From the IMG/VR virus record IMGVR_UViG_3300031746_000002, positions 64,001 to 128,000 of that record: DNA of 64,000 bases. The stretch is one strand, 5' to 3'. Under the pieces are notes generated by a model. It was given only the letters and a program-made list of their open reading frames with translations, was not told where the DNA came from and ran no database searches. Positions 4,696 to 42,114 of this stretch are shown in pieces (the first letter of the stretch is position 1; each line of letters opens with the position of its first letter). A program made the translations under genes and the position numbers. Source of the stretch: a virus.

Positions 4696-4995
4696 ATGAA
4701 ACTACCAGAATTAAAAAAAGGTGAAACATATGCGAAGGTAGAGATTATGCGAATTAATTCAGTGGGTTCTGATAATAATTCTTTTTCTGAAAAAGCTATA
4801 AAGTTTTGTGTTAAAAATTGGCGTAAAACTTTAGATCCCATAATGCGAGATAAAAATAAGAAAATAATTGGAAGAATTGTTAATGTAATATACGCTCCAG
4901 CTGACAAGGCACTTCAAGCAATTGCAATCATCAAAGAAAATAGAGTAAAAGAGCAAATGCCCGTTAATATCGAATTTGTGGACAAATTGCAATAA
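4696..4995 (+). CDS. Small protein resembling the N-terminal half of an HK97-type prohead protease, without the catalytic His
   Basis: Pattern match by eye to 49700 protease (F-x-x-K, G-x-I, D-x-x-[LI] spacing); low identity. Confidence 0.3.
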   Translation: MKLPELKKGETYAKVEIMRINSVGSDNNSFSEKAIKFCVKNWRKTLDPIMRDKNKKIIGRIVNVIYAPADKALQAIAIIKENRVKEQMPVNIEFVDKLQ

Positions 4996-5025
4996 ATTTT
5001 CTTAGAAAGGGCTTATTAATTAAAT

Positions 5026-5286
5026 ATGGATAATAAATTATTAGAACTTAAATCAAAGATAGATAGCATCAAGGAAAAAGTTCAGCTGTTAAAAGGTCAG
5101 CAACAATCATTGGCAAACTCTAAAAAAGAATTGCTTGATATGTTAAAGCAGAAAGAAAACATTTCAAGTACTTCAGAATTACATGATAAAATTGCAGAGC
5201 TTGAAGCTGATATTAAATCTAAGCAGGCAAAGTTAAATAAAGCACTTTCATCAATAACAATATCCGCTGGAGAAGAAGATGAGTGA
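5026..5286 (+). CDS. Coiled-coil protein, probable middle segment of the split SbcC
   Basis: Pure heptad repeat; overlaps the start of the C-terminal SbcC half. Confidence 0.5.
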   Translation: MDNKLLELKSKIDSIKEKVQLLKGQQQSLANSKKELLDMLKQKENISSTSELHDKIAELEADIKSKQAKLNKALSSITISAGEEDE

Positions 5287-5920
5287 GATTACCACAAATG
5301 ATATTATAAGAAAGTATAATAGTTATAAGTCTGAAATAGACCAACGTAAAGGACAGAAATTACAGTTGGAAAAAACTATTGAAAATCTAAAAAAATCTAT
5401 TGAAGAAGATGCAGGTCAAGAAAAGATACTTACAGATACAAATGCTTTTCTACAAGAATTAAATATACAGCGTAGAGAAACAACTGTAACTAGAATAGAA
5501 GATATTGTTACAGAAGCATTACAAGAAATTTTAAATAATGATAACATTAATTTCAAAATTATATTTGAAGCAAAACGTAGTGCAGTTAATACAGAGTTTA
5601 AAATTTTTAATAGTATTAACATGACTGAGTATGACATATTGACTTCACGTGGAGGCGCATTAGCTCATATAGTGAGTGTTGCTTTAAAAATAATCATTTC
5701 AAAATTATTAGGTTTAGAGCATTGTTTAATATTTGATGAGTCAGCAACATTTCTTGATGATGAAAATGTTGTAAGGTTTGCAGAATTTTTACAGAAAGTA
5801 AGTAAGCAACTTGATGTACAAATAATCTTTGTAACTCATATCAAACCAATTATTTCAGCAGCTGATAATGTTATTAAAATAAATTCAGTTAAGGGAAAAA
5901 GTTATGTCGAAGAGGACTAA
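5279..5920 (+). CDS. SbcC/Rad50-like ATPase, C-terminal half
   Basis: Coiled coil, ABC signature-like TSRGG, Walker B LIFDE, D-loop FLD, H-loop IFVTH. Confidence 0.88.
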   Translation: MSEITTNDIIRKYNSYKSEIDQRKGQKLQLEKTIENLKKSIEEDAGQEKILTDTNAFLQELNIQRRETTVTRIEDIVTEALQEILNNDNINFKIIFEAKRSAVNTEFKIFNSINMTEYDILTSRGGALAHIVSVALKIIISKLLGLEHCLIFDESATFLDDENVVRFAEFLQKVSKQLDVQIIFVTHIKPIISAADNVIKINSVKGKSYVEED

Positions 5921-6530
5921 GTTTACTCAAGAATATATTACAAACTATTTATCAAAAGTATTTATACCAGCAAACCATGATGAATTAATTGTTGGGTTAG
6001 ATATGTCATTAGGAGCTTTTGGTGTTTGTGCGGTTAATACAAAAAAAGATATGCAAATGAATCAGTTGATTAAAGTAAAAACTAGAGGCGCTGAAAGATT
6101 AGCAAACATTAGAAGTCAATTAAAAATAACATTGGAACAAAATAATATTAAATTTGCTGTAATTGAAAGTTATGCTTATGGTAAAAGTGTAGGTAGATTT
6201 TTTGAAATAGGGGAATTAGGCGGAGTTATTAAACATTTATTATTTATACGAAATATACCATATATACTTATATCTCCAATGACACTTAAGAAATGGATAA
6301 CTGGTAGTGTTAAGGGAGACAAATCAGCAATACTATTACAGATATATAAAAAATATAAAGTAGAACTTAATGATAATAATTTGGGCGATGCATTTGTATT
6401 GGCACAAATTGGATGTGCTTTAAATAGTTTAGCAATAGGAAATAGTTCTATAGATGACTATCCAAAATATCAACAAGAATGTATAAAATCATTTATAGAT
6501 AAAATAAAGGAGAGAGAAAATGGCAATTGA
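5904..6530 (+). CDS. RuvC-like Holliday junction resolvase
   Basis: IVGLDMS, VIES, ELGGVIK, LKKWITG..KGDK, NLGDAFVLA acidic-residue pattern. Confidence 0.85.
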   Translation: MSKRTKFTQEYITNYLSKVFIPANHDELIVGLDMSLGAFGVCAVNTKKDMQMNQLIKVKTRGAERLANIRSQLKITLEQNNIKFAVIESYAYGKSVGRFFEIGELGGVIKHLLFIRNIPYILISPMTLKKWITGSVKGDKSAILLQIYKKYKVELNDNNLGDAFVLAQIGCALNSLAIGNSSIDDYPKYQQECIKSFIDKIKERENGN

Positions 6531-6801
6531 TATTAATAGTGAGATTAAGGAATCATCTGAGGACTCGTATGAGGGTCAATTTTCTACAATTACCACAGTT
6601 AAAGACAAAGATGGTAAAGAAATTCAAATGCCATCTTTAGTGAAATCATTTTTTGATGTATTTAAAAAATGGTTAGAAAAATATAAAGATAAGCGTGTAT
6701 GTATTAAGATTACAACTATTGAAGGTACCAATGATGAAACAAAAATAGAAAGTCATGATACAAAAGAAGAGAGTATAACAATAGAAGGGAAACCAGAATG
6801 A
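6520..6801 (+). CDS. Hypothetical protein
   Basis: AGGAG RBS, ORF in tightly packed operon. Confidence 0.6.
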   Translation: MAIDINSEIKESSEDSYEGQFSTITTVKDKDGKEIQMPSLVKSFFDVFKKWLEKYKDKRVCIKITTIEGTNDETKIESHDTKEESITIEGKPE

Positions 6802-7139
6802 CATTTAGAATTATATTGATTGAAACAAAAACTTGGTTAAGAACTATTTGGTATAATATTAAGAATTATAAAAAGATAAAAGAAGCAAAGAAACAGGAAG
6901 AACTACAAAAAATTGCTGAAGCTAAAAAAACACCACAAGAAAAAATGCAAGAAGAATTAGCTAAAAAGTCACCACAAGAGCTTAAACGAATAAATAAAAG
7001 AATTGAAGAATTAAGACTTAGAGGCAGACCAATTATTTGTGCTAATTGTAAAAGACCGGGTATCACAAAACAAACAGGTGCTTTTATTAAAACAATGGTT
7101 GATGGTGAAGAACTTTATATTCATGAGGCATGCAAATGA
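6798..7139 (+). CDS. Hypothetical protein with C-terminal zinc finger
   Basis: CANC...HEAC; ATGA coupling to upstream gene. Confidence 0.55.
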   Translation: MTFRIILIETKTWLRTIWYNIKNYKKIKEAKKQEELQKIAEAKKTPQEKMQEELAKKSPQELKRINKRIEELRLRGRPIICANCKRPGITKQTGAFIKTMVDGEELYIHEACK

Positions 7140-7720
7140 TTATTTTTATTCCGCAAGGTGAGCATTTAGAAAAATATGAAAATGGTATGAGAGTTGTATG
7201 TATAGAAGCTTGTGATGGTAATATGGATATAATGGGCAAGCATGGTACTGTAATAAATGATAAATATAAGCGCCCACTCATATTATTTGACCAAGAGGTT
7301 AATGGTCATGACGGATATGAAAAAGGTTCAAAGAATAGAGCTAGGTGTTGGTTAGTTAACAATCAGTATCTAATAGTAATGCCACGGCAGGCAAATAAAA
7401 AAGCCGAAGATAAAACGAAAACAAAGGAGGAAACAGAAATGGCAAAGATGAGAAAGTTGTTTGAGTTAATTGTGTTTGACCCAAAGCAGCAGAAGGTGAT
7501 TTACAAAGACATCATTCCAGCTGATGATGAGAAAGAAGTATTGATTGAAGCTGATATCAAAGCCATCATGACAAAAGAAAGCATAGCAAAGCTTCGTGAT
7601 ATTGATATTCTTATTACCGAAAGAGGAAGTGTCAGGTCTGATATTTCAGAAATTCCAGTGAAGATGGTTATTCAAGCTGGGAAAACAATATTGTTAAGAG
7701 AAGAAGAGGGGAAAAACTAA
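7130..7720 (+). CDS. Hypothetical protein (SH3-like N-terminus; in-frame internal start at 7439)
   Basis: YENGMRVV...GKHGTVI pattern; AAGGAGG RBS precedes in-frame ATG at 7439. Confidence 0.5.
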   Translation: MQMIIFIPQGEHLEKYENGMRVVCIEACDGNMDIMGKHGTVINDKYKRPLILFDQEVNGHDGYEKGSKNRARCWLVNNQYLIVMPRQANKKAEDKTKTKEETEMAKMRKLFELIVFDPKQQKVIYKDIIPADDEKEVLIEADIKAIMTKESIAKLRDIDILITERGSVRSDISEIPVKMVIQAGKTILLREEEGKN

Positions 7721-7726
7721 TTGAAT

Positions 7727-7797
7727 TTCCGGGTCGACTAATGGCAGGTCAACAGGCTTTGAACCTGTCAGTGTAGGTTCGAATCCTACCCCGGAAG
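7727..7797 (+). tRNA. trnQ: tRNA-Gln (anticodon TTG), CCA not encoded
   Basis: Acceptor TTCCGGG/CCCGGAA, anticodon arm ACAGG-CTTTGAA-CCTGT, T arm GTAGG-TTCGAAT-CCTAC. Confidence 0.93.
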
Positions 7798-7810
7798 TTT
7801 AGGAGAAAAC

Positions 7811-8161
7811 ATGAGTATATTAAAAATAGCTATTGGTTTGGAAGAAGACAACATAGAATTATTCAAAGAATTAAGAGCAATAGGAGTAGAACCAGAAGCA
7901 GGAGACACAGCAGTAAAATGGAATGCTAATGACCCTGATGAAGTTATAAAAGCAAAAGCTGCATTTAATGTTGCATTAAAACAATACGGAAAAGATGCTA
8001 TCATTTATTCTATAGGTAAGGATGGGAAGAAAGATAAAGAGCTTAAAGAGTTTGACCCATTAGCAGAGGAAATTTTAGTATTACCAAAACCACATCCGGG
8101 ACCAGACCCAGGTTCTGAATTTTCTTATGGCAGCGAATTTGATATGAAGGAGTTAGGATAA
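7811..8161 (+). CDS. Conserved small phage protein (GDT..W...D.DEV...FDP.AE.I pattern)
   Basis: AGGAG RBS; motif pattern recalled from phage hypothetical proteins, not verified. Confidence 0.5.
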   Translation: MSILKIAIGLEEDNIELFKELRAIGVEPEAGDTAVKWNANDPDEVIKAKAAFNVALKQYGKDAIIYSIGKDGKKDKELKEFDPLAEEILVLPKPHPGPDPGSEFSYGSEFDMKELG

Positions 8162-8163
8162 TT

Positions 8164-9663
8164 ATGCCAACACTACCTTTAGTATATACAGAACCTATGT
8201 GTTCAGACCCAATGACACAACTTATAAATTCATGCTTAGCAAGCATAGTATGTACAAGAGAAGAAGCTGCAATATTAAGAAAATTTAATGTATTACATAA
8301 TTTAAATCCATATTCACTTCAAGAGGAAATAAGTATAAGAGGTACTTTTCAAATTCCATTAGAAGTAACAAAAAGAAATGATATGAGTTGGGTTCCTTCT
8401 GGAGTACTTGATAGTGAAGCAGCTAAAAAATTATTAGAAGTAAGATTTAAGAATTGTAGGTTTATGTCTAATGTAGATGTGGCACATGAAGAACTTGTTT
8501 ATTCAAGAGATTCGCAAAAAGCAATTATAAGACGTTTATTAGATAGACAACTTCATGAGATTAAAACATTACATAGAAAAGAAATGAAGAAAGAAATGGA
8601 ACGAAGTAAACAATGCTTAGCTCCATTATCAATATTACCTACTCATGTAAAGGAGAATGATGCTATGGTTCTGCTTACAATGCAAGACATACGTCAAAGA
8701 TTTAATAAAATGGAAGCTGAACGATATGATATTGAAATGGGTTTTGGTGATACTCTTCTTGCTTATTCAGGGGCTACTAATATGGCAACAACTAATTATA
8801 AAAATTATGAAACTGCAGGTACTGTTACAAATGCTCAATACGGATACTTTGAAGAAACATTGCAACAGTATTACCCCCAAATTCAAATTAACCACATGAT
8901 GCCCGAAGGTACAATAATAATAGATGAACAAAGATTTGCTGAATATCCATTACATACTACGTATAGTACAACTACTGATACTAATAGTTATGAAGATTAT
9001 GCTTCAAGAATGCGGTATTATGAAATGATGGGAATTCCAAGTCCGTTTATGGCAAGTCCATACAATCCACAATTATTTGAAAATATTTCATCAGAAGCAT
9101 ATGAGTTACGAGAAAAACAACAGAAAGAAAGGCAATTCAAACTTCAATCAGCTGATGAAAAAGCACAGAAACTTTTGAAAGATATGATTAGTGAAATTGA
9201 TTTCAGACGATATAAAGAAAAAGGATATCTATTAGTTAAAGGTGAAAGTGGTAGAATTTATCGTATCTGGAATAATAATACAATGTTAGATGTTTATGAA
9301 CTAGAAGCGCATCAAAAAGATTATTCACAAAATGATAAAGACAGTCAAATGAGAATAATTAAACCTAATGAATTAGCTATACATTTATTGAAAGATGATA
9401 AGCTCACACTTCGTAGAAAACTTTGTATACATAGTCCAAGTAAAAATCTTCCGCAAACAGACGAAGTCATATTGAAATTTATCTTAGCTAAAAACGATGA
9501 AAAACGATTACTTGAAATGTCACATCATTTTATACAAAGTGAACAACCAACAGCACCTTCAGAACCATTTGGTTTTGGTCCATCACCAATTGATCCATCA
9601 AGAATAATGGATCCGAGATTATTTACTCCACAACCACATGAAAGGCTAGGGTTAATGAGATGA
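8164..9663 (+). CDS. Multi-domain hypothetical protein; N-terminal part with a degenerate HK97-capsid-like pattern, C-terminal conserved phage domain
   Basis: 499 aa; IP...SWVPSG...MSNVDVAHEEL segment; C-terminal KAQKLL...KGYLLVKGESGRIYRI...LCIH...DEKRLL. Confidence 0.5.
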   Translation: MPTLPLVYTEPMCSDPMTQLINSCLASIVCTREEAAILRKFNVLHNLNPYSLQEEISIRGTFQIPLEVTKRNDMSWVPSGVLDSEAAKKLLEVRFKNCRFMSNVDVAHEELVYSRDSQKAIIRRLLDRQLHEIKTLHRKEMKKEMERSKQCLAPLSILPTHVKENDAMVLLTMQDIRQRFNKMEAERYDIEMGFGDTLLAYSGATNMATTNYKNYETAGTVTNAQYGYFEETLQQYYPQIQINHMMPEGTIIIDEQRFAEYPLHTTYSTTTDTNSYEDYASRMRYYEMMGIPSPFMASPYNPQLFENISSEAYELREKQQKERQFKLQSADEKAQKLLKDMISEIDFRRYKEKGYLLVKGESGRIYRIWNNNTMLDVYELEAHQKDYSQNDKDSQMRIIKPNELAIHLLKDDKLTLRRKLCIHSPSKNLPQTDEVILKFILAKNDEKRLLEMSHHFIQSEQPTAPSEPFGFGPSPIDPSRIMDPRLFTPQPHERLGLMR

Positions 9664-10010
9664 AAGCTATTTACATTAAATGGGAATGTATCGAATCAGT
9701 GTTTCAACCAAAATTAATAAATGTTAATGAAATAAAAGAAACTATATATTACAGAAAATATATGGGCATAGGTATTATGGTTTCAGAAACAAAAGATAGC
9801 ATCATTTATACTCCAGCAATAAATGAAGGAAATTGTTGTTCATTAATAACAGTGCCAAAAAAATCGATTACACAATTAAAAGCTATAGACATAAACATGT
9901 TTGATGATATACTTGCAAAAGAAAATGAAAAGAAACAAAACGAACGAAAACAGAAAAAAGAAAAGAAAAAAGAAGAGAAGAACAAAGATGCAAATGGAGA
10001 TAAGAAATGA
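9660..10010 (+). CDS. Hypothetical protein
   Basis: ATGA-coupled ORF, lysine-rich tail. Confidence 0.55.
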   Translation: MKAIYIKWECIESVFQPKLINVNEIKETIYYRKYMGIGIMVSETKDSIIYTPAINEGNCCSLITVPKKSITQLKAIDINMFDDILAKENEKKQNERKQKKEKKKEEKNKDANGDKK

Positions 10011-10903
10011 AATATGTAGTGGACTATAATGTTAAAAAGAAATATGGTGGGTTTATTCCTACTAGTTTAATCACATATAAGATGCTTGCTAATGATGATG
10101 TATATAAAGATTATGGTAAACGGCTAGATGCTTTGATGGGAGATGAAATACCAATTCGTAGAGTGATTGGTGGTAATGTAAAGCAAAGGGGCGGTGGTAA
10201 ATTAGGTACTGACTATGATTTATCAAAGATCAATTCATTGCTTGCAAGATTTTTAATTAAGAAATTTACAATGCAAAATGATTTAATTTTAGATCCGTTT
10301 TTAAATAGAGGCGAAATAGGAATTGTAGCGAATGTATTGAAAAGACATTTTAAAGGTATAGACATCAGCAAACTTTATGTTGATTTCGTAAACAAACGAT
10401 GGGATACGTTGCTTAAAGAAAAAAATGAAATGATAAAACCAAACTATAGTTTCGATGTTTCTCTTGGAGATGCAACATTGATGACTGGTATTAAAGATAA
10501 TTCAATTGATGATATAATAACATCACCACCTTATTGGTATATGGAAATATATAATGATGTACCTGGAGAACTTAGCCATTACAAAAAATATAAAGACTTT
10601 TTAATTGAATATGAAAAATTTATTAAAAGAGCTTATGAAGTAATGAAACCACTTGACATTGGTGATTATAAACATTTCTTTGTTATTATAACTGGGAATG
10701 TCAGAGGACGAAAAGGATTTACAATACCATTTACTAATCATACGCAGCGGTTAGCTGTAAAGCATGGATTTAAATTATGGGATGAAATTATATATGTACG
10801 TAAAGAAATGGCTACAGTGTTTACTTACAAACGTGAAGAAGTGATGAAACGAGTTAAACGGGTGCATGAAACTGTTTCAATTTTTGTAAAGGTGGATAAA
10901 TAA
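10007..10903 (+). CDS. Amino-DNA methyltransferase (N4-C/N6-A type)
   Basis: LILDPF motif I region, GIDIS, GDA, catalytic TSPPYW, C-terminal HE-x-V-x-IF. Confidence 0.85.
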   Translation: MKYVVDYNVKKKYGGFIPTSLITYKMLANDDVYKDYGKRLDALMGDEIPIRRVIGGNVKQRGGGKLGTDYDLSKINSLLARFLIKKFTMQNDLILDPFLNRGEIGIVANVLKRHFKGIDISKLYVDFVNKRWDTLLKEKNEMIKPNYSFDVSLGDATLMTGIKDNSIDDIITSPPYWYMEIYNDVPGELSHYKKYKDFLIEYEKFIKRAYEVMKPLDIGDYKHFFVIITGNVRGRKGFTIPFTNHTQRLAVKHGFKLWDEIIYVRKEMATVFTYKREEVMKRVKRVHETVSIFVKVDK

Positions 10904-11085
10904 TGGCTGATATTAAACCACAATATCTTTGGTTGATTGAAAGAATGAAAAAATTAAAACATGGAACTATGATAATTCATATTCAAGATGGTGTACCAGT
11001 TAAAACTTCAAAGGAAGAAAGTGTTGCTGATTTTACATTTCAGGAATATCTAAAAGATATAGAAAATGAAAAGGATAAAAAATAA
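10903..11085 (+). CDS. Small YezD/DUF2292-like protein
   Basis: LKHGTMIIHIQDGVPV matches the G-x-h-x-h-x-h-QDG pattern of the family. Confidence 0.55.
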   Translation: MADIKPQYLWLIERMKKLKHGTMIIHIQDGVPVKTSKEESVADFTFQEYLKDIENEKDKK

Positions 11086-11087
11086 TT

Positions 11088-11939
11088 ATGCCAGTAGGAA
11101 TTTATAAACGAACTAAAAAAAATAGCAATAAAGGAAAGCATCTTACTAAAGAATGGTGCGATCATATAAGAAAAGGTAACTTAAAAGCTATCAAAGAAGG
11201 AAGACATAAATCTTGGAATAAGGGTTTAACAAAAGAAACAGATAAAAGATTAATGAATACAAGTAAAAATTTAAAAGGAAAAATTTCATGGAGTAAGGGA
11301 TTAACTAAAGAAAATAATTCGAGTTTAAGACATATGAGTAAATTATTAAAAAATCATACTACTTGGAATAAAGGATTAAAAAAAGATACCGACAAAAGAG
11401 TAAAAAATAGTGCAGAAAAATTAAGTAAAAAACTAATAGGACGAAAACTTTCTAAAAAGCATTGTATAAATATAGGTAAAGCAAGAATTGGTAAGCATCC
11501 GTCTATAAAAATAAGAAAAAATATGATAAAAGCTACAGCTAAAAGAATTTTTGAAGGAAAACAGAAACTTGGTACTAATGGTAAATATTCTAATGTCGTT
11601 ACTTATTTTTATTCAAAGAAAAATAATAAAACGTTTAGGACTGTTTCTAAAAACTATGAATTGAAATGTATTAAACATCTAGAAAATGATAATAATATAG
11701 TTAGTTATGATATGAATTGCTTAGCAATCAGATATTTTTATAAACAAAAATGGCATAACTATTTTCCTGATTTTATAGTAAAAGTTAAAAAAGGGAAAGA
11801 TATAATAATTGAATGTAAACCAAGTAATCATTTAAATGATGAGCAAGTCAAAATTAAGATAAAAGCAGCAAAAAAATATTGTAAGAAAAACAATACGATA
11901 TTTAAAGTTTGGACAGATGAAACAAAGGAAACCAAATGA
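11088..11939 (+). CDS. Free-standing homing endonuclease: WNKGLTK repeats plus TnsA-N-like PD-(D/E)XK domain
   Basis: Three W[NS]KGL[TK]K[ED] repeats; YE...YFPDFIV...IIECKP...KIKAAKKYC...FKVWTD. Confidence 0.8.
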   Translation: MPVGIYKRTKKNSNKGKHLTKEWCDHIRKGNLKAIKEGRHKSWNKGLTKETDKRLMNTSKNLKGKISWSKGLTKENNSSLRHMSKLLKNHTTWNKGLKKDTDKRVKNSAEKLSKKLIGRKLSKKHCINIGKARIGKHPSIKIRKNMIKATAKRIFEGKQKLGTNGKYSNVVTYFYSKKNNKTFRTVSKNYELKCIKHLENDNNIVSYDMNCLAIRYFYKQKWHNYFPDFIVKVKKGKDIIIECKPSNHLNDEQVKIKIKAAKKYCKKNNTIFKVWTDETKETK

Positions 11940-12099
11940 ACGAACTATATTATAAAAAAATTATTAAAATATTAAATCTTGATAGTTATGATACTGAAAA
12001 AATAGAAAATTTAATTAAACTATTTATAGACACAGATCCAGAGTTTAGTCCCACAATGTTTAGGCTTTGGGTTCGTAATAAATATTATTTAGGTGCAAT

Positions 12100-12330
12100 A
12101 TGAAATCGACTAAAGCAATGAAAGAACTTGACAAACAAATTAGGAAAACTATTAAAGAAATTATTAAAGACTTTGTAGGGTCACATAACGATGAAGTTAC
12201 AAGAAGCAGAATAAATTTAAAAGTTACAGAAGTATTAAACAAATTTTATCCAAAGTGCAAAGTAAAGATTAAGTTGAAGTCTAAACGAAACAGCATATAC
12301 AAATTCGAAGTTAAAGTGACTGACCTGTAA
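12100..12330 (+). CDS. Small protein resembling the C-terminal domain of a contractile tail sheath protein
   Basis: IRKTIKEIIKDFVGSHNDEVTRSRINLKVTEVL resembles the sheath-C pattern (FVG/FE-x-N-D-x-x-T-R-x-x-I...L). Confidence 0.45.
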   Translation: MKSTKAMKELDKQIRKTIKEIIKDFVGSHNDEVTRSRINLKVTEVLNKFYPKCKVKIKLKSKRNSIYKFEVKVTDL

Positions 12331-12366
12331 ACAGAGGCATGCAGTAATAAGCTGACTGTAACGAGG

Positions 12367-12414
12367 AGGGCACTTCAAATAGTAGAAATACTATCTGGAG
12401 TGCCCTGTTTTTTT
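12367..12414 (+). terminator. Strong intrinsic terminator/attenuator hairpin directly before the sigma-like gene
   Basis: AGGGCACTTCA-AATAGTA-GAAA-TACTATC-TGGAGTGCCCT followed by G and T7. Confidence 0.85.
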
Positions 12415-12825
12415 ATGAGACTATTTAAAAGAAAAAAACGATTTATAAAATTAGATTATAAATTTTTTGAAGACCAGCTTGAATATGATAAGTTTGTCGA
12501 AATACCAATGCCGATAGATAGCATATATGCATTAGCTGAAGACGCTAATGCATTACGTATATTACGAGAACGTCAAGATAAAAATAAGGAATATGTAGAA
12601 CTATTGAAACGATACATAAAACAAAAAAGATTTACCCCAATGCAAACATATGTAGTAACACTGCGTTTAGGATATACCAGAACTACATTCAAAAAAAAGT
12701 ACTATATTGGACCGCGAACAAATGCTCAAATAGCTACGATGCTAGGAATTAGTAAAGTGATGATAACTAAACACATCAAACGAGTTCGTGATAGAGTATC
12801 TCAGATTATCAAAAACAAGGGTTAA
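12415..12825 (+). CDS. Sigma70 region-4-like HTH protein, candidate late-transcription regulator
   Basis: FTPMQTYVVTLRLG...RTNAQIATMLGISKVMITKHIKRVRDRV; ATG 12415 preferred over GTG 12400, which lies inside the hairpin. Confidence 0.7.
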   Translation: MRLFKRKKRFIKLDYKFFEDQLEYDKFVEIPMPIDSIYALAEDANALRILRERQDKNKEYVELLKRYIKQKRFTPMQTYVVTLRLGYTRTTFKKKYYIGPRTNAQIATMLGISKVMITKHIKRVRDRVSQIIKNKG

Positions 12826-12844
12826 CCAATAATATTATTATATA
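12819..12844 (+). promoter_or_regulatory. Candidate late promoter/operator, copy 1 (GGGTTAACYAATAATATTATTATATA)
   Basis: 25/26 identical to 49231-49256; both precede structural operons. Confidence 0.75.
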
Positions 12845-12923
12845 TTATAGATACAAAGAAATAGCACTACAATAATTGTAAACAATTGTAGTGAGCAGAA
12901 ACTGAGAGTGAGGTAAACGAACA

Positions 12924-26790: not shown

Positions 26791-27102
26791 ATGGAAACAG
26801 ATGCAGAAATTATTAAAGGGTTAGAAATGAAGAACAAGAAGTTAGTAGAGCGAAATGATGAACTACAAAAAGAAAAGCAAGATTTACAAGCAACAGTAGA
26901 TGAGTTATATGTACCATTAGCATTTGAGTATAAAGAAGGAAGAAAAACATTGCTAATAAAACTTGGATCAAAAGAACGTGGTTGGTTTCCAAGCGGTAGA
27001 CATTTTGCAGCAGCACAGAAACAATTCAAAGCTTGTATGTTGGATAAGAAATTCAATATCATATTATATCACTATGCTATTGAAACACAAATAGTAGAAT
27101 AA
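26791..27102 (+). CDS. Coiled coil fused to a copy of the portal KxGSKExGWxPSxRH segment (mini-portal paralog)
   Basis: GGAG RBS before ATG 26791; 17 identities in 35 ungapped positions against portal codons around 23488-23592. Confidence 0.8.
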   Translation: METDAEIIKGLEMKNKKLVERNDELQKEKQDLQATVDELYVPLAFEYKEGRKTLLIKLGSKERGWFPSGRHFAAAQKQFKACMLDKKFNIILYHYAIETQIVE

Positions 27103-33088: not shown

Positions 33089-33230
33089 GAGACATCTCCG
33101 AAATTGGCGAAAGCCGTATGGGCGAAATACCCGTTAATCAAATAGTCTCCGCGTCAGGGATGAAGAAAGGTGGGACTAGTAGTGTCCATCCTCTAAAGAG
33201 TGTGTAATAACTCATCTGCAATGCCTGACG
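33089..33230 (+). ncRNA. Candidate structured non-coding RNA
   Basis: GC-rich island with stems GAGAC/GTCTC, GGC-GAAA-GCC, TGGG/CCCG, CGTCAGG/CCTGACG, GGAC/GTCC, GAGT/ACTC; overlapping ORF lacks a good start. Confidence 0.45.
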
Positions 33231-34166: not shown

Positions 34167-34373
34167 ATGATTTCTTATTATGTAGATGATAAAACAGGTA
34201 AAGATATTAATCGTCGAAAAGGAAAGAACCCTAAGAAACCGTGGAAGACTTGGCAATATGCAGTAGATCATATAACAATAATTCCTTGTATATTAAGGTT
34301 TAAACCAAAATACCCTGTTAAATATATAACAGCTACTTTTGATTTGAACAATCTAAAAAGGAGGAAACGATGA
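34167..34373 (+). CDS. Small chimeric protein: beta-helix/tailspike-type N-terminal cap motif plus sheath-like terminal strand
   Basis: YYVD..TG.D....G....PWKTWQYA and LRFKPKYPVKYITATFDL. Confidence 0.45.
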   Translation: MISYYVDDKTGKDINRRKGKNPKKPWKTWQYAVDHITIIPCILRFKPKYPVKYITATFDLNNLKRRKR

Positions 34374-34876
34374 GAAAATTAGGTTGGGTATTAGTTGTGT
34401 TAAGTATTGTGCTGTTTACTGTTTATGGGTTTGGTGCATTATCAGTACATAACAGGGTAATGAATTCAAGCTTAGGTTATTGGAATTTAGCAGACAAGTC
34501 AAGTACGCTAGAAGCAAAATGCGATAACATTGACAAGTTCGTTGCAGCTATTAATAAGGAAACATTTACAACTAACAATGCATGGCTTTATCCCAATATC
34601 AATAATAGCATTGAATATAATAAAGCGGCATTACTAACATTACAGAAGAGACTACATGAAATAAAAAGGCTGGATCCGAATTCACTTGCATACGCTACAA
34701 GTATTCAGCAGATAACAGCGCAAGAACAAGGTGAAGCTCAATATATGATAGGTGAAATTTATGGATGCTTATATAAAGCAACATACCCAATGTATTGGGG
34801 CTGGTTATCTGCATTGATACTTACTTTATATAGCATTATTTTTATAGTTGGATGTGTTTTTTGTAATTGGGATTAA
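34370..34876 (+). CDS. Membrane protein with two TM helices
   Basis: AGGAGG RBS; hydrophobic N- and C-terminal segments. Confidence 0.65.
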   Translation: MRKLGWVLVVLSIVLFTVYGFGALSVHNRVMNSSLGYWNLADKSSTLEAKCDNIDKFVAAINKETFTTNNAWLYPNINNSIEYNKAALLTLQKRLHEIKRLDPNSLAYATSIQQITAQEQGEAQYMIGEIYGCLYKATYPMYWGWLSALILTLYSIIFIVGCVFCNWD

Positions 34877-34884
34877 TTATTCTA

Positions 34885-34913
34885 TTTACGTTTTCGCTGA
34901 AATATAGTATAAT
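34885..34913 (+). promoter_or_regulatory. Sigma70-type early promoter, copy 2
   Basis: TTTACG-TTTTCGCTGAAATATAG-TATAAT. Confidence 0.85.
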
Positions 34914-35506
34914 GTAATTAAAGGAAAACGATAAATAGGAGGAAATGAAAATGATTAAAGTAAGACCGGAATCACAGGCATGGAATGTTTTGGTAGATCT
35001 TTGGGAGCAAGAGGAACAGCATCCTGGTATATTTGATAAAGAAAGAAAAGAAAGAAGAAAAGGTGCTGCATGGAAGAATAGTAATATTTGTAAATCTATA
35101 GAAAGACATAAAAAATAAAATAGGAGGAACGATGAAATATAGCGAAGGTTTTTTTAAGAAAGCAGAATCTTATGCTAATGAATGTTTATTGGGATGTTTG
35201 AAAAGAAAGCATTATTATTCAATTGATTGCGAAGTTCCTGATGAGCTAGGGATTAAATGTCCTTTTATAAAAGTTTGTAAGCACATAAAAAAGTTGATTA
35301 AATAATAAAGGAAAACAGAAATGAAAACAAAAGAAAAGAAACAAGAAGTAGCTAAAGCAAATCAAGAGACTCATGATAAGCTTACACCACAGCAGAAGAT
35401 AGCAAAGCTGGATGCAAAGTTTGGTGTAGGAAAAGGTGCAAAGAAAGAACGAGCAAGATTGATAGCATTATATATTGGTTTAAATCATCTATAATATAAA
35501 GGATAA

Positions 35507-35619
35507 GCCTGGAGACATGGTGAAAATCCATCTGGATGAGAAGCAAAACAATACGCTCCTCGGCAATCGTCTAGTAAGGTTCACAGCCTGTGAACAAATA
35601 TAGAGGACACCAGGCACCA
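35507..35619 (+). ncRNA. Candidate structured RNA with tRNA-like ends
   Basis: Closing stem GCCTGG/CCAGGC followed by ACCA; ATGG-TGAAAAT-CCAT, CTGGATGA/TCGTCTAG, GAGAAGC/GCTCCTC, GTTCACA/TGTGAAC stems; ORF-free; TATAAT at 35490. Confidence 0.55.
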
Positions 35620-36370
35620 TCAAAATGAGGATAGTAATATATAAGCACCCATTGCAATTAAAGATTTCAATTAATAAGTTCGGCAGAGGAATTGCTGTCT
35701 TTTTCTTTGGATTAAGCTTATATATTTATATGTACGGCAATACTGAAAGAGATAAGGTTCTATGGTATACAATGTTAACATGGTAAGGAGAAAACAATGG
35801 GAAATGTATTTAGCTGGTTTAAACATGTAATGGGAATAGGCAGGTGGGAGAAACCAAAGACTGATGCAGTGATAGAGAAATTAATTGCAAAAACAAGAGG
35901 TCCAAGTGTGGATCAGAAAACAGCGGATTATAATAAGATGCTAAAACATCGAAGGGAAAGAGTAAAGTTTGCTAGAAGGACAAGGAAGATAAACATTGCA
36001 TTGGAGAAACAATAACTCATGATAAAAAAGAAACGACCAGACTATAGAGGCTTCATGCTACATCTAAAGGATTTAGATAAATATGGAATTGCGTATGGAA
36101 TAAATGATTTGATAGAACTGGCAAATAAGTACAGAACACCAATTCCAAGGTTTATAGGGAGAAGGACACCGAAACTGCTTATGGTAAAAAGATAATGAAA
36201 CCTAAATTAACTGTTAAGATATTAAGGGATAAGATAGGAATGGCTAGAATACATATAGACAGTGCTAAGGCTGTTATGCATTGCGCAACAATAAAGTTTC
36301 ATGATGCAGAATACGAATATAATATATTACGAAAAAGATTAAAAGCAATGATAAGTAAAAGGAAAAACAA

Positions 36371-36811
36371 ATGAAAATCTGCATTGTAGGAAGTTATAAA
36401 TGGAAAGATGAAGATATTAAAGTTGCAAAGAAAGTAATTAAGTTGATCTTTGATGTTATAGAAAAATACAATGATGTAATAATCATATCAGGTGAATGTC
36501 CAAAAGGCGGAGTAGATATTTGGGCAAAAGAAGAGGCTGAAAACAGGGAAATGGAATATCAGGGGTTTTATCCTAAAGGTAATTCAAAAATGTTCTACAT
36601 GCAACGTAACAAGAAGATGGCACTTACTTGTGATGCTTTATTCAGAATAGCTTCACGTGCAAGTACTACATATGGAAGTGGAATAACAATGAAATGGGCA
36701 GCAGAGCAGAAGAAACCTTTTTATAACATAATCGTAGCAAATTATATCAATACTGATGAAATTAAAAAAGGCATTAGAAAAATATTAGACTCAATAACAG
36801 AGAGGAAATAA
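36371..36811 (+). CDS. SLOG-superfamily (YspA/DprA-like) protein
   Basis: KICIVGS, IISGECPKGGVDIWA, RNKKMA..CD, GSGITM..A. Confidence 0.75.
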   Translation: MKICIVGSYKWKDEDIKVAKKVIKLIFDVIEKYNDVIIISGECPKGGVDIWAKEEAENREMEYQGFYPKGNSKMFYMQRNKKMALTCDALFRIASRASTTYGSGITMKWAAEQKKPFYNIIVANYINTDEIKKGIRKILDSITERK

Positions 36812-38504
36812 TGGTTAAGAATAAGAGAACAAAGAAAAAGAAATCATATGAAGTTATTATAGCTATGGTATTAACAACAAAAATGAAAGATGGTGAAAGA
36901 ACAACAATACCCATAACACACTACGATGATAGTGATCTAGACAAGCTACAAGCTATAGTAATTAAACATGTCAACTGTATATTTAAGAAAGGAAAAGAGA
37001 TATGGAGAAAATAAATGGGCAGGTGTATTTATAGATATAGTGTAAAAATATATTATCCAAAAATTCATATGGTACAACTTTGTCAATTAAAAGAAGCAGC
37101 GTATGGTGGCGATTATAATAAGACAGCATGTAATAGTATAAAGAAAGATTGTCCAATTCTTAGAATGGTTAATAGAGTGGAAGAGATAAGGAGAACAAAT
37201 GATAATAACAAACAATGATATTTTGGGATTGTGTTTACTTGGGTTAGTAATAGTAATTTTTGGAATGGGAAGTGGAGGAGGTGGTGGAGGATGTGGAGTT
37301 AATCCTCCTCCTAAAACACCGAGACCAGCAAATCCACCGCAAGGACAAGAGACAAGAATAATAACATCAATAGGTGATAACAAAATAGCGCACCAAGAAA
37401 TGAGAACTTTACAACCACCTCCAGCTACAAAGGAGAAACAATAAGAAAAACGAAATAGCAGAACAAGAGGATAGTATGGAATTTTTTGGTTTAATATTTA
37501 AAATAGTCTTTAGTATATTTGCACTGATTATACTCTATTATATATCTAACTATTTTTTAGGTCCAGTTCTATTTTATCTATTTGAAACTGAAGATAATTT
37601 ATTCTGGTTTGTAGTGGTAGGATTAATAGCTGTATTTTGCTGGAAAAAGGAGGGATAAATGTTATTAGCGGATTGTCTTGGTAAAAGGATTTTGTATGAT
37701 GTTAGATATAGTGAATATGGTATAGATGAAGCAACAGTAGTTGAAATATCTCCCAACAAAGAATATGCACGTTTAAGACATCCTAATGGAAACTTTACTT
37801 GGGAAAGAATAGAAACTTGGAATGGAAAACATCATGTAGTAGATACATTGATAATAAAGAATGGTGCACTATCAATACAAAAGATTATGCATGTGATGAG
37901 AACAGGTAAACCTTTAAAGGAGAAAAAGTAATGGAAACATTGCGTATATTAATGAAGGATCCAGGCATGGCAATATTCTTAATCATATTAGGAATATGTG
38001 CTATTGGGTGCATCATAGGAATATTCTATTCAATATTAAGGAACGACCCAGAAAGACCGTTCTAAAGGAGAAATAACATGGATTATATGGGAATGGATCC
38101 AGCTTTCGTTTGGTATAGCTTCTCATTCTTTATATTTTTAATAATAGTGTTTAGTAGTGCTATGGTTTACTGCAAGCATAGAACAGAAAAAGGTCTTGCA
38201 AGATATTTAATTGTTTATCCTATTTTTTTAACAATCGCTGCAGGTTGGTGCTACCTACAAGCAGGAATACCAGTATTTGTTAGTAGCGATAGTCTTACAT
38301 TATTTTGTGCTGGCTTCTTTTTTATAGGGGGATTTATAGTATTCATGGTTATTTATAACCAGATGAAAAAAGATTTAGGTCCTAGAATTGATATTAAAAT
38401 TAAATCAAATACACAACGGGATAATAAAGGAAGATTTAAGAAGCAGAACAAAATGACTGCAGATGAAATTGCAAGTATAGATACAATAGATTAAAGGAGA
38501 AACA

Positions 38505-39248
38505 ATGGGAATGTATGATAATGTAACAGGCAAATGTCCCTACTGCGGAAAAGAGTTTTATACACAAACAAAGTTATTTGGGTCGATGATGATGAATTAT
38601 ACAATAGGCAGCCGGATATTTGAAAACTCATTAGCGCTTTATGCATCAGTATTACTTAAGGATGTTTGCTTTGAATGCAGGCAGCCAATAGTTATGATGA
38701 TTGAAAACAACATAATAACAGCATTTAAAAAAGTAACTGAAGAAAAACCAATGTATATTGAAGGACCGTGGGGCAGCTTTGAAAAGAATGAAGAAGCTAA
38801 TGCTGTAGACAATGATGGCAACCCAATTAAAACAGGGTTCAGCGGAGGAACAGTATCAAGTGTAATAGATGCTCCATTAGACAGTCATATCATAGACGTA
38901 ATAAAAGAAAGAATACGGTGCATTGATTTTGGACACCATGATATAAATAGCTTCTGTACTGAAAAAGAGTTCTTAAATAACTTATTAATATTAAATGAAC
39001 GAGCAGCTAAGCTACCAGCACATAGCTTACCGCCAAAAGAGATATATGATGTATTACATGCAGCAGAAGAGAATGGAATAAATATCCCACTTACAGTTGA
39101 TGAATGGTGGAAGAAAGAAACGGAGATAAACGAAATGAACAAAGGATTTACATTGCCTGAACTGGTAATTACAACGGTGATAGTAATAGTTATAGGGTTC
39201 TTATTCTGGAAGTTTGTATTGACTACAGTAATTAAATTGATAATGTAA
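38505..39248 (+). CDS. Zinc-ribbon protein with in-frame C-terminal prepilin-like peptide (own RBS/ATG at 39135)
   Basis: MGMYD...CPYC...QTK; C-terminal MNKG-FTLPELVITTVIVIVIG. Confidence 0.6.
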   Translation: MGMYDNVTGKCPYCGKEFYTQTKLFGSMMMNYTIGSRIFENSLALYASVLLKDVCFECRQPIVMMIENNIITAFKKVTEEKPMYIEGPWGSFEKNEEANAVDNDGNPIKTGFSGGTVSSVIDAPLDSHIIDVIKERIRCIDFGHHDINSFCTEKEFLNNLLILNERAAKLPAHSLPPKEIYDVLHAAEENGINIPLTVDEWWKKETEINEMNKGFTLPELVITTVIVIVIGFLFWKFVLTTVIKLIM

Positions 39249-39580
39249 TGAAGATACGAAATAAAAAACAATATTTCAAAGAATATAATTGTGAGAAAGA
39301 GCTTAAACAATTCTGTAAATATGTATTCAAAGATTTAGAACTTAAGGGCTGGAAAGTTAAGAAAGCAAAAGATAGTTACTGTAACCAAAGAACAAAAACT
39401 ATCACATTAGCTGAATATCACTTTGCAGGATTATATCTTTTTGATGCTAAGATATTCTTTCTGCATGAAGTAGCACATATATTTACATATCCGAAAGATC
39501 ATTGGCATGGAGATTTATGGCAAAATAGATACAAAGATCTAGTTTTTAAATTCATCATACATGAAGGAGAAGTATATTAA
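39248..39580 (+). CDS. SprT-like HEXXH zinc metallopeptidase
   Basis: FLHEVAH.....HWHG..W. Confidence 0.7.
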   Translation: MKIRNKKQYFKEYNCEKELKQFCKYVFKDLELKGWKVKKAKDSYCNQRTKTITLAEYHFAGLYLFDAKIFFLHEVAHIFTYPKDHWHGDLWQNRYKDLVFKFIIHEGEVY

Positions 39581-39593
39581 AAGGAGGAGTAAC

Positions 39594-39938
39594 ATGTGGA
39601 TAACTAGGAAATATATTCAAGAACATGAAGACACAATCTTTGTATTTGGAGACAATGTAGAAGGTTATGGGAATGGAGGACAAGCAGCAGAGGCACGTGG
39701 AGAAAATAATGTAATAGGCATTCCAACTAAATGGAGTCCCAGGGAATTCTTCAAAGATGAAGACTATGATAAGGTAATACCCATTATTGATGCAGCATTC
39801 CAACAGATTAAATATCAACTGAACATAATGGGATTTAATATAGTATTCTTTCCAGACATCGGCAAAGGACTTGCAGAGCTTCCAAAGAGAGCACCCAAAA
39901 TCTACCAATATATTAAGGATAAGATAGAGAGCTTCTAA
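39594..39938 (+). CDS. Conserved phage protein (FVFGDN...GGQA...GIPTK family)
   Basis: AGGAGG RBS; FVFGDNVEGYGNGGQA, IGIPTK, IGKGLA motifs. Confidence 0.65.
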   Translation: MWITRKYIQEHEDTIFVFGDNVEGYGNGGQAAEARGENNVIGIPTKWSPREFFKDEDYDKVIPIIDAAFQQIKYQLNIMGFNIVFFPDIGKGLAELPKRAPKIYQYIKDKIESF

Positions 39939-40187
39939 TGCCCAATCCAGAATTAGGTCAAGTTGTCCAAGCCACTCATTTCAAATGTCCCAAGTGTAAA
40001 ACAGATAGATTCATTCTAGATAAGATGGGTTTAATCTGCACTATATGTAAGGCATTCTTTAGTGCAGCATATATCAATTACGATAATGATAACCAACAAA
40101 ACGGAGTAGATATTTATGCTGATAATATAAACCAAGCTGAAAGTTCGACGAAATAAAGCTTAATAATTAAATGGGAAGGATAAGAAG

Positions 40188-40856
40188 ATGGTATCTATTA
40201 AACTAACAAAAGAAGAATATGAGCTTTTGAAAAGTCCAGAGATGCAGAAATATTATATATTTAAAAAAAGTAAAGCATCACACCAGCAATGTTTAAATGC
40301 AGCTCTTACTGAATTAAGCTGGGGTAAATTCATGCAGCCCAATCATATAGATAAAACAAGATTTCCTTATCCTTTATTAAAAGAAGCACATGGGGGATTT
40401 GATTATACACGTTTTGCTGTAATGATAGATATTAAATCAACAACTATAAATGTTAAATATGTAGCAAAATATTTTCAATGCTCTATTGATGCAGGACAAA
40501 TAGATCAAAAATGTGAGATATATGTTTTTATATTTGTAAACATTGAAACTTTAACTTGTATAATTGCTGGATATATTTTAAAGAAAGATTTTATTAAGAA
40601 AGCAAGGATAATTAATCCCGGTGAATTATTAGGTAATAAAAAGCCAGCAGTTAGAAAAAGCTATACTGTTGAAGTACAAGATTTGATATTAATAGAATCA
40701 CCAAGGAATTTTAGTATTGAGATGAAAGCATTAAGTAAAAAATTAGGTTATTATAAGAAATGGAAAGAGAATCATGATTTACATCTTAATTTAACAAAGA
40801 TGAAATCTAAAACAATGCATGCAATAGATTATGATGATGAAGATGATGAGGAATAA
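40188..40856 (+). CDS. Putative PD-(D/E)XK nuclease-like protein
   Basis: E...GGFD.....IDIKST...IYVF...IAGYI pattern. Confidence 0.5.
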   Translation: MVSIKLTKEEYELLKSPEMQKYYIFKKSKASHQQCLNAALTELSWGKFMQPNHIDKTRFPYPLLKEAHGGFDYTRFAVMIDIKSTTINVKYVAKYFQCSIDAGQIDQKCEIYVFIFVNIETLTCIIAGYILKKDFIKKARIINPGELLGNKKPAVRKSYTVEVQDLILIESPRNFSIEMKALSKKLGYYKKWKENHDLHLNLTKMKSKTMHAIDYDDEDDEE

Positions 40857-40859
40857 ACA

Positions 40860-41141
40860 ATGTCAAAACCAGAAAGAGTTCATATAACAAAGAAAATTAT
40901 AAATGAAGCAGTTGGACGTTTTAAAAAAATTGTAGCTGGCAGGTTATACCAAAAGGGATCAGGTGCTTTCATAAACAATCATGAAACTCTTGGCATTATT
41001 ACTGAAGAATATTATGAGTTGATAGAAGCAGTAAAAACAGATGATGATGAAAAAGTATTACATGAATTACAAGACATAGGCGTTGCTTGCATTTTAGGTT
41101 GGATAGGTATAGTATTAGGATGGAGGGAAATAGATAAATGA
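40860..41141 (+). CDS. MazG-like NTP pyrophosphohydrolase domain protein
   Basis: ITEEYYELIEAV......HELQDIG (ExxE...ExxD). Confidence 0.65.
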   Translation: MSKPERVHITKKIINEAVGRFKKIVAGRLYQKGSGAFINNHETLGIITEEYYELIEAVKTDDDEKVLHELQDIGVACILGWIGIVLGWREIDK

Positions 41142-41700
41142 AAACAATATACAAGTATGTAGTACCTCATGATGGCACTGAAATACAAATGCCAATAGGT
41201 GCAGAGATATTAACTGTTGCAATGCAAGTAGGTGAAATATACATCTGGGCAATAGTTGATACTGATAATAAATTTGAAACAAGAAAATTTATAGCCCAAG
41301 CTACAGGAAGAGAAATGCCAGAAGGCAAATTAAAATATATAGGAACTGTATTTATAGGGACTATGCTTATGGAGTTGGTGTTTCATGTGTTTGAGAAGCT
41401 GAAGGAGTTACAGTGAAAAAAGAAATAATGAATTTTAAAGATGCTATTAACATACTTAAAAATCTTACTGTTAATGATAAGAACGAATCTATAGATATAG
41501 GTATAAATCAATATGACGGTATTTATGAGCATGGTGAATTACATATAGATTTTGGTTTAGGAAATAGTTTTGAAGAAGCAGTAATTAGTGCTGCTAAGGA
41601 AGTAATAAGAAAATATCCAGAATATTCAAAATATTTAAGAATGCCAAATGATAAAATTTTAGAAAATTTTGAAAAGTTTAACTTGAGATAAGGAATTGCA

Positions 41701-42114
41701 ATGAGAAAAGCAATTGACATATGTGTTATCCCTTGGCATGAACGTTGGGCAGTCAAGAAGGACTCCTGCAAGCGACCAATAGTTACTTGCCAATATAAAT
41801 ACCAAGCAATTCATATTGCTGAAGAGCTGACCATCTGCGATAGGATGCCGACATCAGTAAAGATAGGATTAGATGATAGGTTATTCAATAGGGCTAAAAT
41901 CCATTATTTAGTAAGTTATAAAAAAGGAAAGATAGTAAGAACTGGTGTACATAAGTTGGTAAAGAAATTAGCACCAGCATTTGCTGCACCGCTTCGGATA
42001 AGATTGGATTATCAAGGAATTGCTAAAAGGTTGGTTCGTTCATTTAAGAAATTTAAAAGTAAGCTTCCAGTATACGATAAAGATCTGCCGAAACGAAAAA
42101 GGAGCAAACGATGA
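41701..42114 (+). CDS. DUF2188-like domain fused to a copy of the major-capsid N-terminal segment
   Basis: VIP...RWAVKK....QAI..A; C-terminus has 18/45 ungapped identities to MCP codons 53026-53160. Confidence 0.8.
   Translation: MRKAIDICVIPWHERWAVKKDSCKRPIVTCQYKYQAIHIAEELTICDRMPTSVKIGLDDRLFNRAKIHYLVSYKKGKIVRTGVHKLVKKLAPAFAAPLRIRLDYQGIAKRLVRSFKKFKSKLPVYDKDLPKRKRSKR

Follow-up and report, generated by a model that had tools for sequence, protein, structure and literature searches.

Two small accessory genes of an uncultured sediment phage carry copies of its portal clip and of a conserved capsid segment, and may encode mimics of its own virion proteins

The stretch of DNA analysed here, called the window throughout, comprises 64 kb (bases 64001-128000) of the single 138.9-kb contig that represents the genome of an uncultured tailed phage from sediment (IMG/VR record IMGVR_UViG_3300031746_000002). 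It contains two small genes, each of which joins a copy of a short, conserved piece of one of the phage's own head proteins to an N-terminal domain unrelated to that protein. The first, the mini-portal gene (w26791-27102, + strand; 'w' marks window numbering and 'genome' that of the whole contig), encodes 103 amino acids (aa), of which the C-terminal part resembles the clip of the portal. The second, the capsid-segment gene (w41701-42114, + strand), encodes 137 aa and includes a copy of aa 54-98 from the major capsid protein (MCP). A first-pass annotation, made by a model from the bare sequence, had regarded a portal piece at 26791 and a capsid piece at 41701 as strong matches, and both of them stood, at E values of about 1e-8. 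On the strength of these comparisons, the phage probably maintains, under selection, two and perhaps three mimics of epitopes of its own virion.

The portal itself (w22585-24516, + strand, 643 aa) was recognized by its match to phrog_16240 (2.5e-41). When the open reading frame (ORF) of the mini-portal is read from w26734, its aa 63-121 align with portal aa 289-346, 22 of the 59 positions being identical (blastp E 2e-8); phmmer gave 2.3e-8, and a profile of 45 portals 1e-8. The 103-aa protein, whose ATG at 26791 is preceded 8 nucleotides (nt) upstream by the ribosome-binding sequence AGGAG, equals a gene-call-sized protein of a public collection (P0001). Its aa 44-103 form the clip-like module (w26920-27099, + strand; tblastn match w26920-27096), and its N-terminal 43 residues are coiled-coil-like, with weak Pfam matches to ZapB, bZIP and DivIC. 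Since a full portal unites wing, stem, clip and crown in one dodecamer-forming chain, and the mini-portal covers only positions 291-336 of the 585 in the profile, it is not a small portal. By sequence homology it does qualify as a portal clip, as judged by the profile and by matches at E < 1e-3 to 45 of 50 portal homologues.

The limits of the copy were placed on an AlphaFold2 model of the portal, built with 45 homologues (mean predicted local distance difference test score, pLDDT, 72.5; blocks of 61-86 at the aligned residues). Foldseek returned 151 matches to this model at E <= 0.001, headed by the solved portals of T4, lambda and HK97; the portal sequence gave no match among PDB sequences, and the portal profile gave a weak one to YonE (0.014). 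According to DSSP, the model runs through helix 269-295, strand 298-303, helix 314-328, strands 333-336 and 341-346, and helix 356-369. In T4 gp20 the clip (residues 279-358) is defined as three beta-strands and helix alpha6 which join two stem helices (PMC4493910), and the clip of YonE is described in the same terms (PMC12847820). The aligned residues of the phage's own portal fit this definition in the model, where aa 298-346 (w23476-23622) hold three strands and a helix and are flanked by the stem helices, 269-295 on one side and 356-369 on the other. The match of the mini-portal begins where the first stem helix ends and reaches one residue beyond the last clip strand, and the residues retained include G304, G309, P312, D330 and H338, invariant or nearly so in the portal family, as well as W310, H316, F333 and N334 of the own portal. 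In terms of the predicted fold of the portal, the copied part corresponds to one whole domain, the clip.

This gene has also been maintained. Five homologues of 95 aa, 72-78% identical, were found on five contigs, and comparison with the relative L008 gave a ratio of nonsynonymous to synonymous substitution rates (dN/dS) of 0.20 over 95 codons (dS 0.81), and of 0.17 for the clip part; the mini-portal is under purifying selection. L008 has in common with the window an upstream membrane-protein gene, the tRNA-Pro gene and a homologue of w29171. It lacks the homing endonuclease and the ORFs found in the window between 27195 and 29139, and has different ORFs there, so that the mini-portal was kept amid reshuffled surroundings. 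The gene for tRNA-Pro(TGG) (w27104-27178, + strand) lies directly 3' of the mini-portal, a linkage also seen in L008. The homing endonuclease (NUMOD3 with a TnsA-like N-terminal nuclease; w27195-27839, + strand), one of four paralogues, adjoins the mini-portal in the window, and hitch-hiking of the mini-portal with it was considered and rejected, since L008 lacks the endonuclease at this position. Among contigs of the sequencing runs X2, X3 and X5 that were compared with the window, those of X3 and X5 join 29573 to 26774. A stretch of 85 nt just 5' of the mini-portal (w26651-26734) is 72% identical to L008 positions 1334-1417, which lie just 3' of the mini-portal there; the two may represent a common element, for regulation or for recombination, at the border of the cassette.

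The MCP, to which the second gene is related, is encoded at w52870-53823 (+ strand, 317 aa) and matches phrog_2522 (1.2e-36) and phage G gp27 in PDB 6WKK (9.9e-45). Residues 87-131 of the capsid-segment protein align with MCP aa 54-98, with 18 identities in 45 positions (blastp E 1e-8; phmmer 8.6e-9; profile of 15 MCPs 2.6e-8), and tblastn of the MCP against the genome finds the module (w41959-42093, + strand; core ...APLRIRLDYQGIAKRL...LPVYDKDLP) at 2.6e-7. The match is confined to positions 65-106 of the MCP profile and the protein ends 6 residues past the motif; the spine helix and the P and A domains of an HK97-fold MCP are thus not represented in w41701-42114. The module is preceded by a Cys/His N-terminal domain resembling DUF2188 and followed by the basic tail KRKRSKR. 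DUF2188 (PF09954) is a lead only: the Atlas feature score is 0.77, and the domain reaches 14.7 bits (E 0.035) against a Pfam gathering cut-off of 22. The gene has a good ribosome-binding site, and its stop codon shares bases with the start codon of the following gene (ATGA at 42111).

No other stretch of the family is as well conserved as the copied MCP segment (aa 54-98, w53029-53163), which aligns with about residues 23-67 of the 280-residue gp27 chain in PDB 6WKK. The motif of the N-terminal segment of phage-G-type MCPs, P-[LI]-[RK]-x-x-[LM]-D-Y-x-G ... [LI]-P-x-Y-D-K-D, is present in the capsid-segment protein, and D70, Y71, P90, Y92, D93 and K94 are invariant in an alignment of three MCPs and three mini-proteins, and likewise in a further alignment of the family. 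When the pattern [LM]DYx[GS][IM][AS][KR][KR]L was sought in IMG/VR, all 24 confirmed loci proved to be full-size MCPs (255-348 aa), in which the motif lies close to the N-terminus. An AlphaFold2 model of the MCP, made from 15 sequences, was poor (mean pLDDT 43.6; residues 6-163 below 50), helix 145-173 being its sole confident landmark. Because the segment precedes this spine helix, and given the order of elements in the HK97 fold, it would belong to what we take, from HK97 topology, to be the N-arm/E-loop region, where it would make inter-subunit contacts. A complex prediction for the MCP with residues 78-137 of the capsid-segment protein gave no answer either way (score 0.00), the fold of the partner being itself uncertain.

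A full HMMER search with the capsid-segment protein among 1.84 billion representatives gave three matches at E <= 1e-3, namely the protein itself and two proteins of 91 and 79 aa which share the module only. With a profile, three further small proteins were recovered, together with a true but truncated MCP, making 7 proteins at E <= 0.01 among 1,829 candidates. The resulting family of six small proteins, including P0004, P0005, P0010, P0011 and P0012, has two architectures, one of about 137-141 aa with a long N-terminal domain and one of 79-108 aa with a short C-x6-H...C-x2-C ribbon, and all members share the invariant core APL[RL]..[LM]DY...L...P[VI]YDKD. All six end just past LP[VI]YDKD, five of them with a basic tail, P0005 ending at the motif. 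The possibility that such small capsid ORFs are first exons of intron-split capsid genes was rejected, as the MCP gene is intact here and the mini-proteins have N-terminal parts that bear no relation to those of MCPs. In contigs of runs X2 and X3 exactly 288 bases (within w41401-41690) are skipped, so that the ORF w41413-41691 is lost and the capsid-segment gene kept; at the joint of this strain-level indel, eight letters can be assigned to one side or the other. The conservation and dN/dS check proposed in the first-pass annotation hence found both mini-genes conserved in relatives, with selection measured for the mini-portal.

Another observation concerns the pattern L-x-[KR]-x-A, which is enriched in the proteome (61 occurrences, against 26.2 +/- 5.3 in 200 shuffles) and concentrated in head-module proteins, with 12 occurrences in a 2100-aa ORF, 6 in w13939 and 5 in w19503. 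Sites are found at MCP aa 54-58 (LKRIA), portal aa 53-57 (LKREA) and aa 41-45 of the protease protein. The pattern fits a prohead-protease processing code, and the MCP motif ends where the copied segment starts.

The two matches are exceptional within the genome. All 203 ORFs called greedily in the window were compared with one another by blastp, and 97 proteins of at least 140 aa were searched against the whole genome by tblastn. The six ORFs named in the first-pass annotation were compared by phmmer with the portal, the MCP, the tail sheath (genome 9295-11010), the protease (a prohead-protease domain within an 817-aa protein, w49700-52153), TerL (w16573-19491, 972 aa, containing an intein with HNH) and two other virion proteins, and the portal and MCP profiles were run against all 2,491 six-frame genome pieces of at least 25 aa. 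Each profile recovered its true gene and the one corresponding mini-gene alone, the next E values being 1.3 and 2.4, and neither tblastn nor the profiles found further portal or capsid fragments in any of the six frames of the whole genome. In a shuffle control covering 125 small ORFs and 49 large proteins, the best real matches reached 7e-9, 9e-9 and 1e-4, and the best match of each of the 20 shuffles lay between 1.3e-4 and 0.034; the matches of the two mini-genes exceed this null by four orders of magnitude. For the portal and the MCP, the genome-wide profile comparison of small ORFs with structural proteins, which had been suggested as a check, returned the two strong cases and nothing else.

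The third-best match belongs to w34167-34373 (+ strand, 68 aa), of which the initial 35 aa look like the beginning of a virion protein of 756 aa (genome 25424-27694). Its aa 4-35 align with aa 6-38 of that protein, with 14 of 33 positions identical (E 1e-4 to 8e-4; tblastn 0.03), and we regard this case as marginal because such values sit at the edge of the shuffle null, where the best of the 20 shuffles gave 1.3e-4. The ORF had been taken for sheath-like, and phmmer found nothing in common with the sheath at E <= 100. It ends in KRRKR, and short, strongly basic tails are likewise present in the capsid-segment protein and in P0004, P0010, P0011 and P0012; these may be a shared functional tag.

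The wider claim made for this region, a dispersed arsenal of virion-protein fragments together with disabled host-type modules, did not hold, since four of the six ORFs named fail or are marginal and only the two strong cases persist, an outcome which the annotation itself had named in its refuting condition. The ORF at w12100-12330 (+ strand), described as sheath-like, gave E 13 against the sheath and has instead a weak DUF7355/phrog_1695 match. For w4696-4995 (+ strand), considered protease-like, the comparison with the protease gave E 6.2, no family matched, and the best match was a 26-aa stretch of TerL at noise level (E 0.006-0.01). Position 8341, thought to be HK97-like, lies in a 499-aa ORF (w8164-9663, + strand) which matched no capsid family and nothing in the MCP at E <= 100. 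None of the six named ORFs had a structural PHROG or Pfam match. A Pfam screen of the 89 small + strand ORFs at 4696-49680 yielded 43 families at E <= 0.01, and among the best 25 of these 43 there was no PP-binding or acyl carrier protein (ACP) family and no prepilin family, which leaves the ACP and prepilin-like modules unsupported. For the ubiquitin-like module, a weak match to UN_NPL4 (7.9e-4) was the sole such signal among these 25; the claim of host modules otherwise fell away. The annotation is accordingly confirmed in part, with two solid cases, one marginal, and three ORFs and the host modules unsupported.

Both copies are old. Among the 50 portal homologues compared with the mini-portal, the phage's own portal ranks 11, with 43.5 bits versus 49.7 for the best, and the capsid module shares more identity with phage G gp27 (47.5%) than with the own MCP (40%). 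Since both modules are as close to other family members as to the proteins of their own genome, they are independently evolving copies rather than recent duplications. Both families are rare: the relatives described above were the only ones found among 5.8 billion and 1.84 billion proteins, both families are absent from 50,697 deposited phage records, and IMG/VR single-protein scans with the two mini-proteins, the portal and the MCP gave no matches. The two genes lie in variable accessory regions, with ligase, MazG, HAD phosphatase, helix-turn-helix (HTH) regulators and a homing endonuclease nearby. Pseudogenes would be expected to show relaxed selection, a broken frame and arbitrary boundaries; here, the mini-portal is constrained (dN/dS 0.20), the ORFs are intact and have ribosome-binding sites, and the ends of the copies are domain-exact. 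Taken together, the domain-bounded copies, their conservation and the constraint on the mini-portal rule out simple recombination debris and fit a function in mimicry. As far as sequence can tell, both mini-genes are real, evolutionarily maintained genes and not debris.

The genome also carries several mobile elements. The intein of TerL occupies approximately aa 112-454 and has an HNH endonuclease inside (Intein_splicing 7.2e-17; HNH PHROGs). The four paralogous free-standing homing endonucleases lie at w27195-27839, w11088-11939, genome 28844-29722 and genome 137023-137679, the best pairs being 37-45% identical. Long inserts were seen in 5 of the 50 portal homologues (P0032, P0041, P0044, P0050 and P0061; 982-1045 aa), and Pfam intein families were matched in four of these (not in P0044). 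Three inserts fall inside the clip-coding part, those of P0044 and P0050 at residue 333/334 of the present portal and that of P0061 at 305, which would make the clip an intein hotspot in this portal family.

The explanation that we favour, albeit tentatively, is that the mini-proteins act as soluble mimics of assembly interfaces, and bind assembly partners of the phage itself or of a competitor by competition. On this reading each gene fuses two parts, a small N-terminal domain that is unrelated and an old copy, kept by selection, of one short, autonomous and highly conserved contact element of a head protein. In the mini-portal a coiled coil would present the clip, and in the capsid-segment protein the Cys/His domain and the basic tail would present the N-terminal segment of the mature MCP, each mini-protein occupying whatever normally binds the element in question. 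Of the portal domains, the clip alone lies exposed outside the capsid, where the packaging motor (TerL) and later the neck adaptor dock, and in T4 the packaging of DNA is inhibited by a 24-residue clip peptide (288-311), which binds gp17 (PMC4493910). Likely targets of the clip copy would therefore be TerL or a neck protein, the T4 peptide experiment favouring the motor; for the capsid copy they would be neighbouring capsid subunits, the scaffold or the prohead protease. The phage could profit in one of two ways: its own packaging or assembly may be held back until proheads exist, or the assembly of co-infecting relatives may be poisoned. The union of an unrelated domain with an autonomous contact element, the selection and the accessory location all suggest mimicry by competition, and the variable context and narrow distribution favour a function in conflict. 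We infer the binding, the target and the benefit from the homology, domain boundaries, conservation, purifying selection and accessory context that were observed.

Several points weigh against competition for assembly partners. Genes for conflict or anti-defence occur in accessory, non-structural surroundings more typically than core assembly factors do; the rarity of both families is not what one would expect of a core regulator of packaging, which should be found more widely; it would plainly be costly to the phage if a mimic blocked its TerL or its capsid; and the capsid model, with its mean pLDDT of 43.6, is too poor to confirm the N-arm/E-loop position of the copied segment.

A second possibility, somewhat unlikely in our estimate and nonetheless near-equal to the binding of assembly partners, is that the mini-proteins display epitopes read by host sensors in a soluble form of low valency, and so occupy the sensors without the clustering or conformational change that activates them. 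For the clip this is attractive, because the N-terminal domain of SpbK was modelled on the clip of YonE, with the escape mutation A291P in the clip helix, and because activation requires many SpbK copies on one dodecamer, so that a free clip could compete without activating; Avs4, too, contacts the clip of portal monomers (all PMC12847820). A phage protein that fills the tail-tube trigger pocket of DSR2 without activating it, DSAD1, provides a precedent (PMC10973363), and the most conserved segment in the N-terminal quarter of the T4 capsid protein is visible to immunity through Gol and Lit (PMC3014915). The variable accessory context, the narrow, patchy distribution and the fact that the modules are as near to proteins of other family members as to the own ones are consistent with such decoys. 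On the other hand, the binding of Avs7 is mainly to the A-domain of the MCP, the E-loop being touched by surface contacts only (PMC13581612), which would make a 45-aa N-terminal piece a poor Avs7 decoy, and the Gol peptide alone activates Lit (PMC3014915), so that a Gol-like fragment could trigger the sensor rather than block it. Moreover, a coiled coil would render the clip copy oligomeric, and there are two cases only, not an arsenal. One may generalize further and suppose that large phages carry 'self-epitope decoys', selected mini-genes located away from the virion modules which encode just the piece read by a sensor and titrate the sensor in a non-activating manner, be it the clip (SpbK, Avs4) or a Gol-like capsid segment; this extension, which proceeds by analogy, we consider rather doubtful.

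It is less probable still, and on balance unlikely, that the mini-proteins are minor components of the prohead or virion, in which the copied segment docks or targets them into the capsid, for instance at the portal vertex, and the basic tail contacts DNA. The internal proteins of T4 use a short capsid-targeting sequence; in the present family, a basic C-terminal tail directly follows the capsid module in five of the six members, and the module starts at the candidate MCP processing motif LKRIA (aa 54-58), of the type enriched in head-module proteins. However, the processing motif is not kept in the capsid-segment protein, which has VKKLA followed by Pro, the mini-genes lie far from the head modules and among non-structural genes, and the clip, being outside the capsid, has no evident place for its copy in the shell.

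Debris of recombination by homing endonucleases or inteins, left open by chance, is a very improbable origin and already disfavoured: the first-pass annotation had listed debris among its alternatives, and the heavy load of mobile elements (the TerL intein with HNH and the four paralogous endonucleases, one of which starts 93 nt after the mini-portal) and the inteins inside the clip-coding region of related portals (P0044 and P0050 at 333/334, P0061 at 305) would suit it, but it is opposed by the dN/dS of 0.20 at dS 0.81, the exact domain boundaries, the conservation, the good ribosome-binding sites of both mini-genes, the lack of the endonuclease beside the mini-portal in L008, the two N-terminal architectures and invariant motif of the capsid-segment family, and the absence of further fragments in the six frames.

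Of the remaining features, the window has a G+C content of about 32%, and 189 of its 203 ORFs lie on the + strand. Megablast of window pieces found no DNA match among the 50,697 deposited phage records, and megablast together with tblastn found no close relative among deposited phages; at the protein level, Bacillus phage G gave the best matches (30.9% identity for the MCP and 26.3% for the portal). Near-identical DNA occurs in sediment metagenomes, eight DNA runs carrying parts of the window stretch, and the sequencing-run search found no RNA run with such sequence. Scans for promoters (27 vs 26.3) and terminators (34 vs 34.2) gave about as many hits as did shuffled sequences. The Pfam screen pointed to accessory functions, with a cold-shock domain (4e-28), Archease (3e-18), DUF7831, DUF7352 and DUF5679, and also to HTH and ribbon-helix-helix regulators, MazG and weak RuvC-like and DprA-like matches. 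Three consecutive ORFs at w34945-35494, each of exactly 57 aa, look like a tandem array of small genes, and contigs from sequencing runs skip repeats there at 35032-35062 and 35312-35348. At the start of the contig, the first ORF (genome 57-1055, 332 aa) has two internal repeats, 63% and 51% identical to the translated contig end (138621-138899); this may be a repeat-domain gene spanning the contig ends, or a terminal repeat.

Structural proteins of phages are the main patterns read by bacterial immunity, as in the Avs families, SpbK, CapRel, Lit and DSR2, and our finding bears on how phages may hide these unavoidable proteins from it. Molecular mimicry by phage accessory proteins is of a known kind, and mini-genes for pieces of portal or capsid are undescribed in the literature that we found: in the available parts of the papers retrieved, supplements excluded, there was no description of phage genes encoding pieces of the own portal or capsid as separate accessory proteins or decoys. 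Natural genes for a clip only, or for a capsid segment only, would be ready-made probes, as the partner bound by each should mark a functionally critical interface. If that partner were a sensor, the mini-proteins would represent a new class of anti-defence, and a general principle if true. If it were terminase or the capsid, they would be natural inhibitors of packaging or assembly, useful for studies on the timing of head assembly or on competition between phages.

Among the known systems, the analogies for the capsid piece are weaker than those for the clip. The copied MCP segment resembles Gol of T4 gp23. Gol is short, lies within the first quarter of its protein and is the most conserved part of the family, and as a free peptide it is active and binds EF-Tu (PMC3014915). 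It differs from the capsid-segment protein in being a part of gp23 and not the product of a separate gene, and in activating the Lit protease rather than blocking it; the MCP family of gp23 is also a different one, and the two segments are likened here by description. DSAD1 of SPbeta-like phages shows that a small accessory protein can sit in a sensor pocket, that of DSR2, meant for the tail tube, without activation (PMC10973363). In the SpbK-YonE pair of Bacillus subtilis it is the clip itself that is bound by a host immune protein, a TIR defence protein (PMC12847820). That system differs in being a host defence and not a phage gene, and the known counter-measure of the phage, Nip, is no copy of the clip but a protein that binds the NADase domain (PMC13728456). 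A further likeness is to the clip of T4 gp20 (279-358), the same structural element, three strands and a helix between the two stem helices, as the one that the mini-portal is predicted to copy; its free 288-311 peptide is an active competitor (PMC4493910). The T4 peptide, however, is a laboratory reagent, whereas the mini-portal is a natural, selected gene that appears, by its sequence, to encode a whole clip of the phage-G-like portal family fused to a coiled coil.

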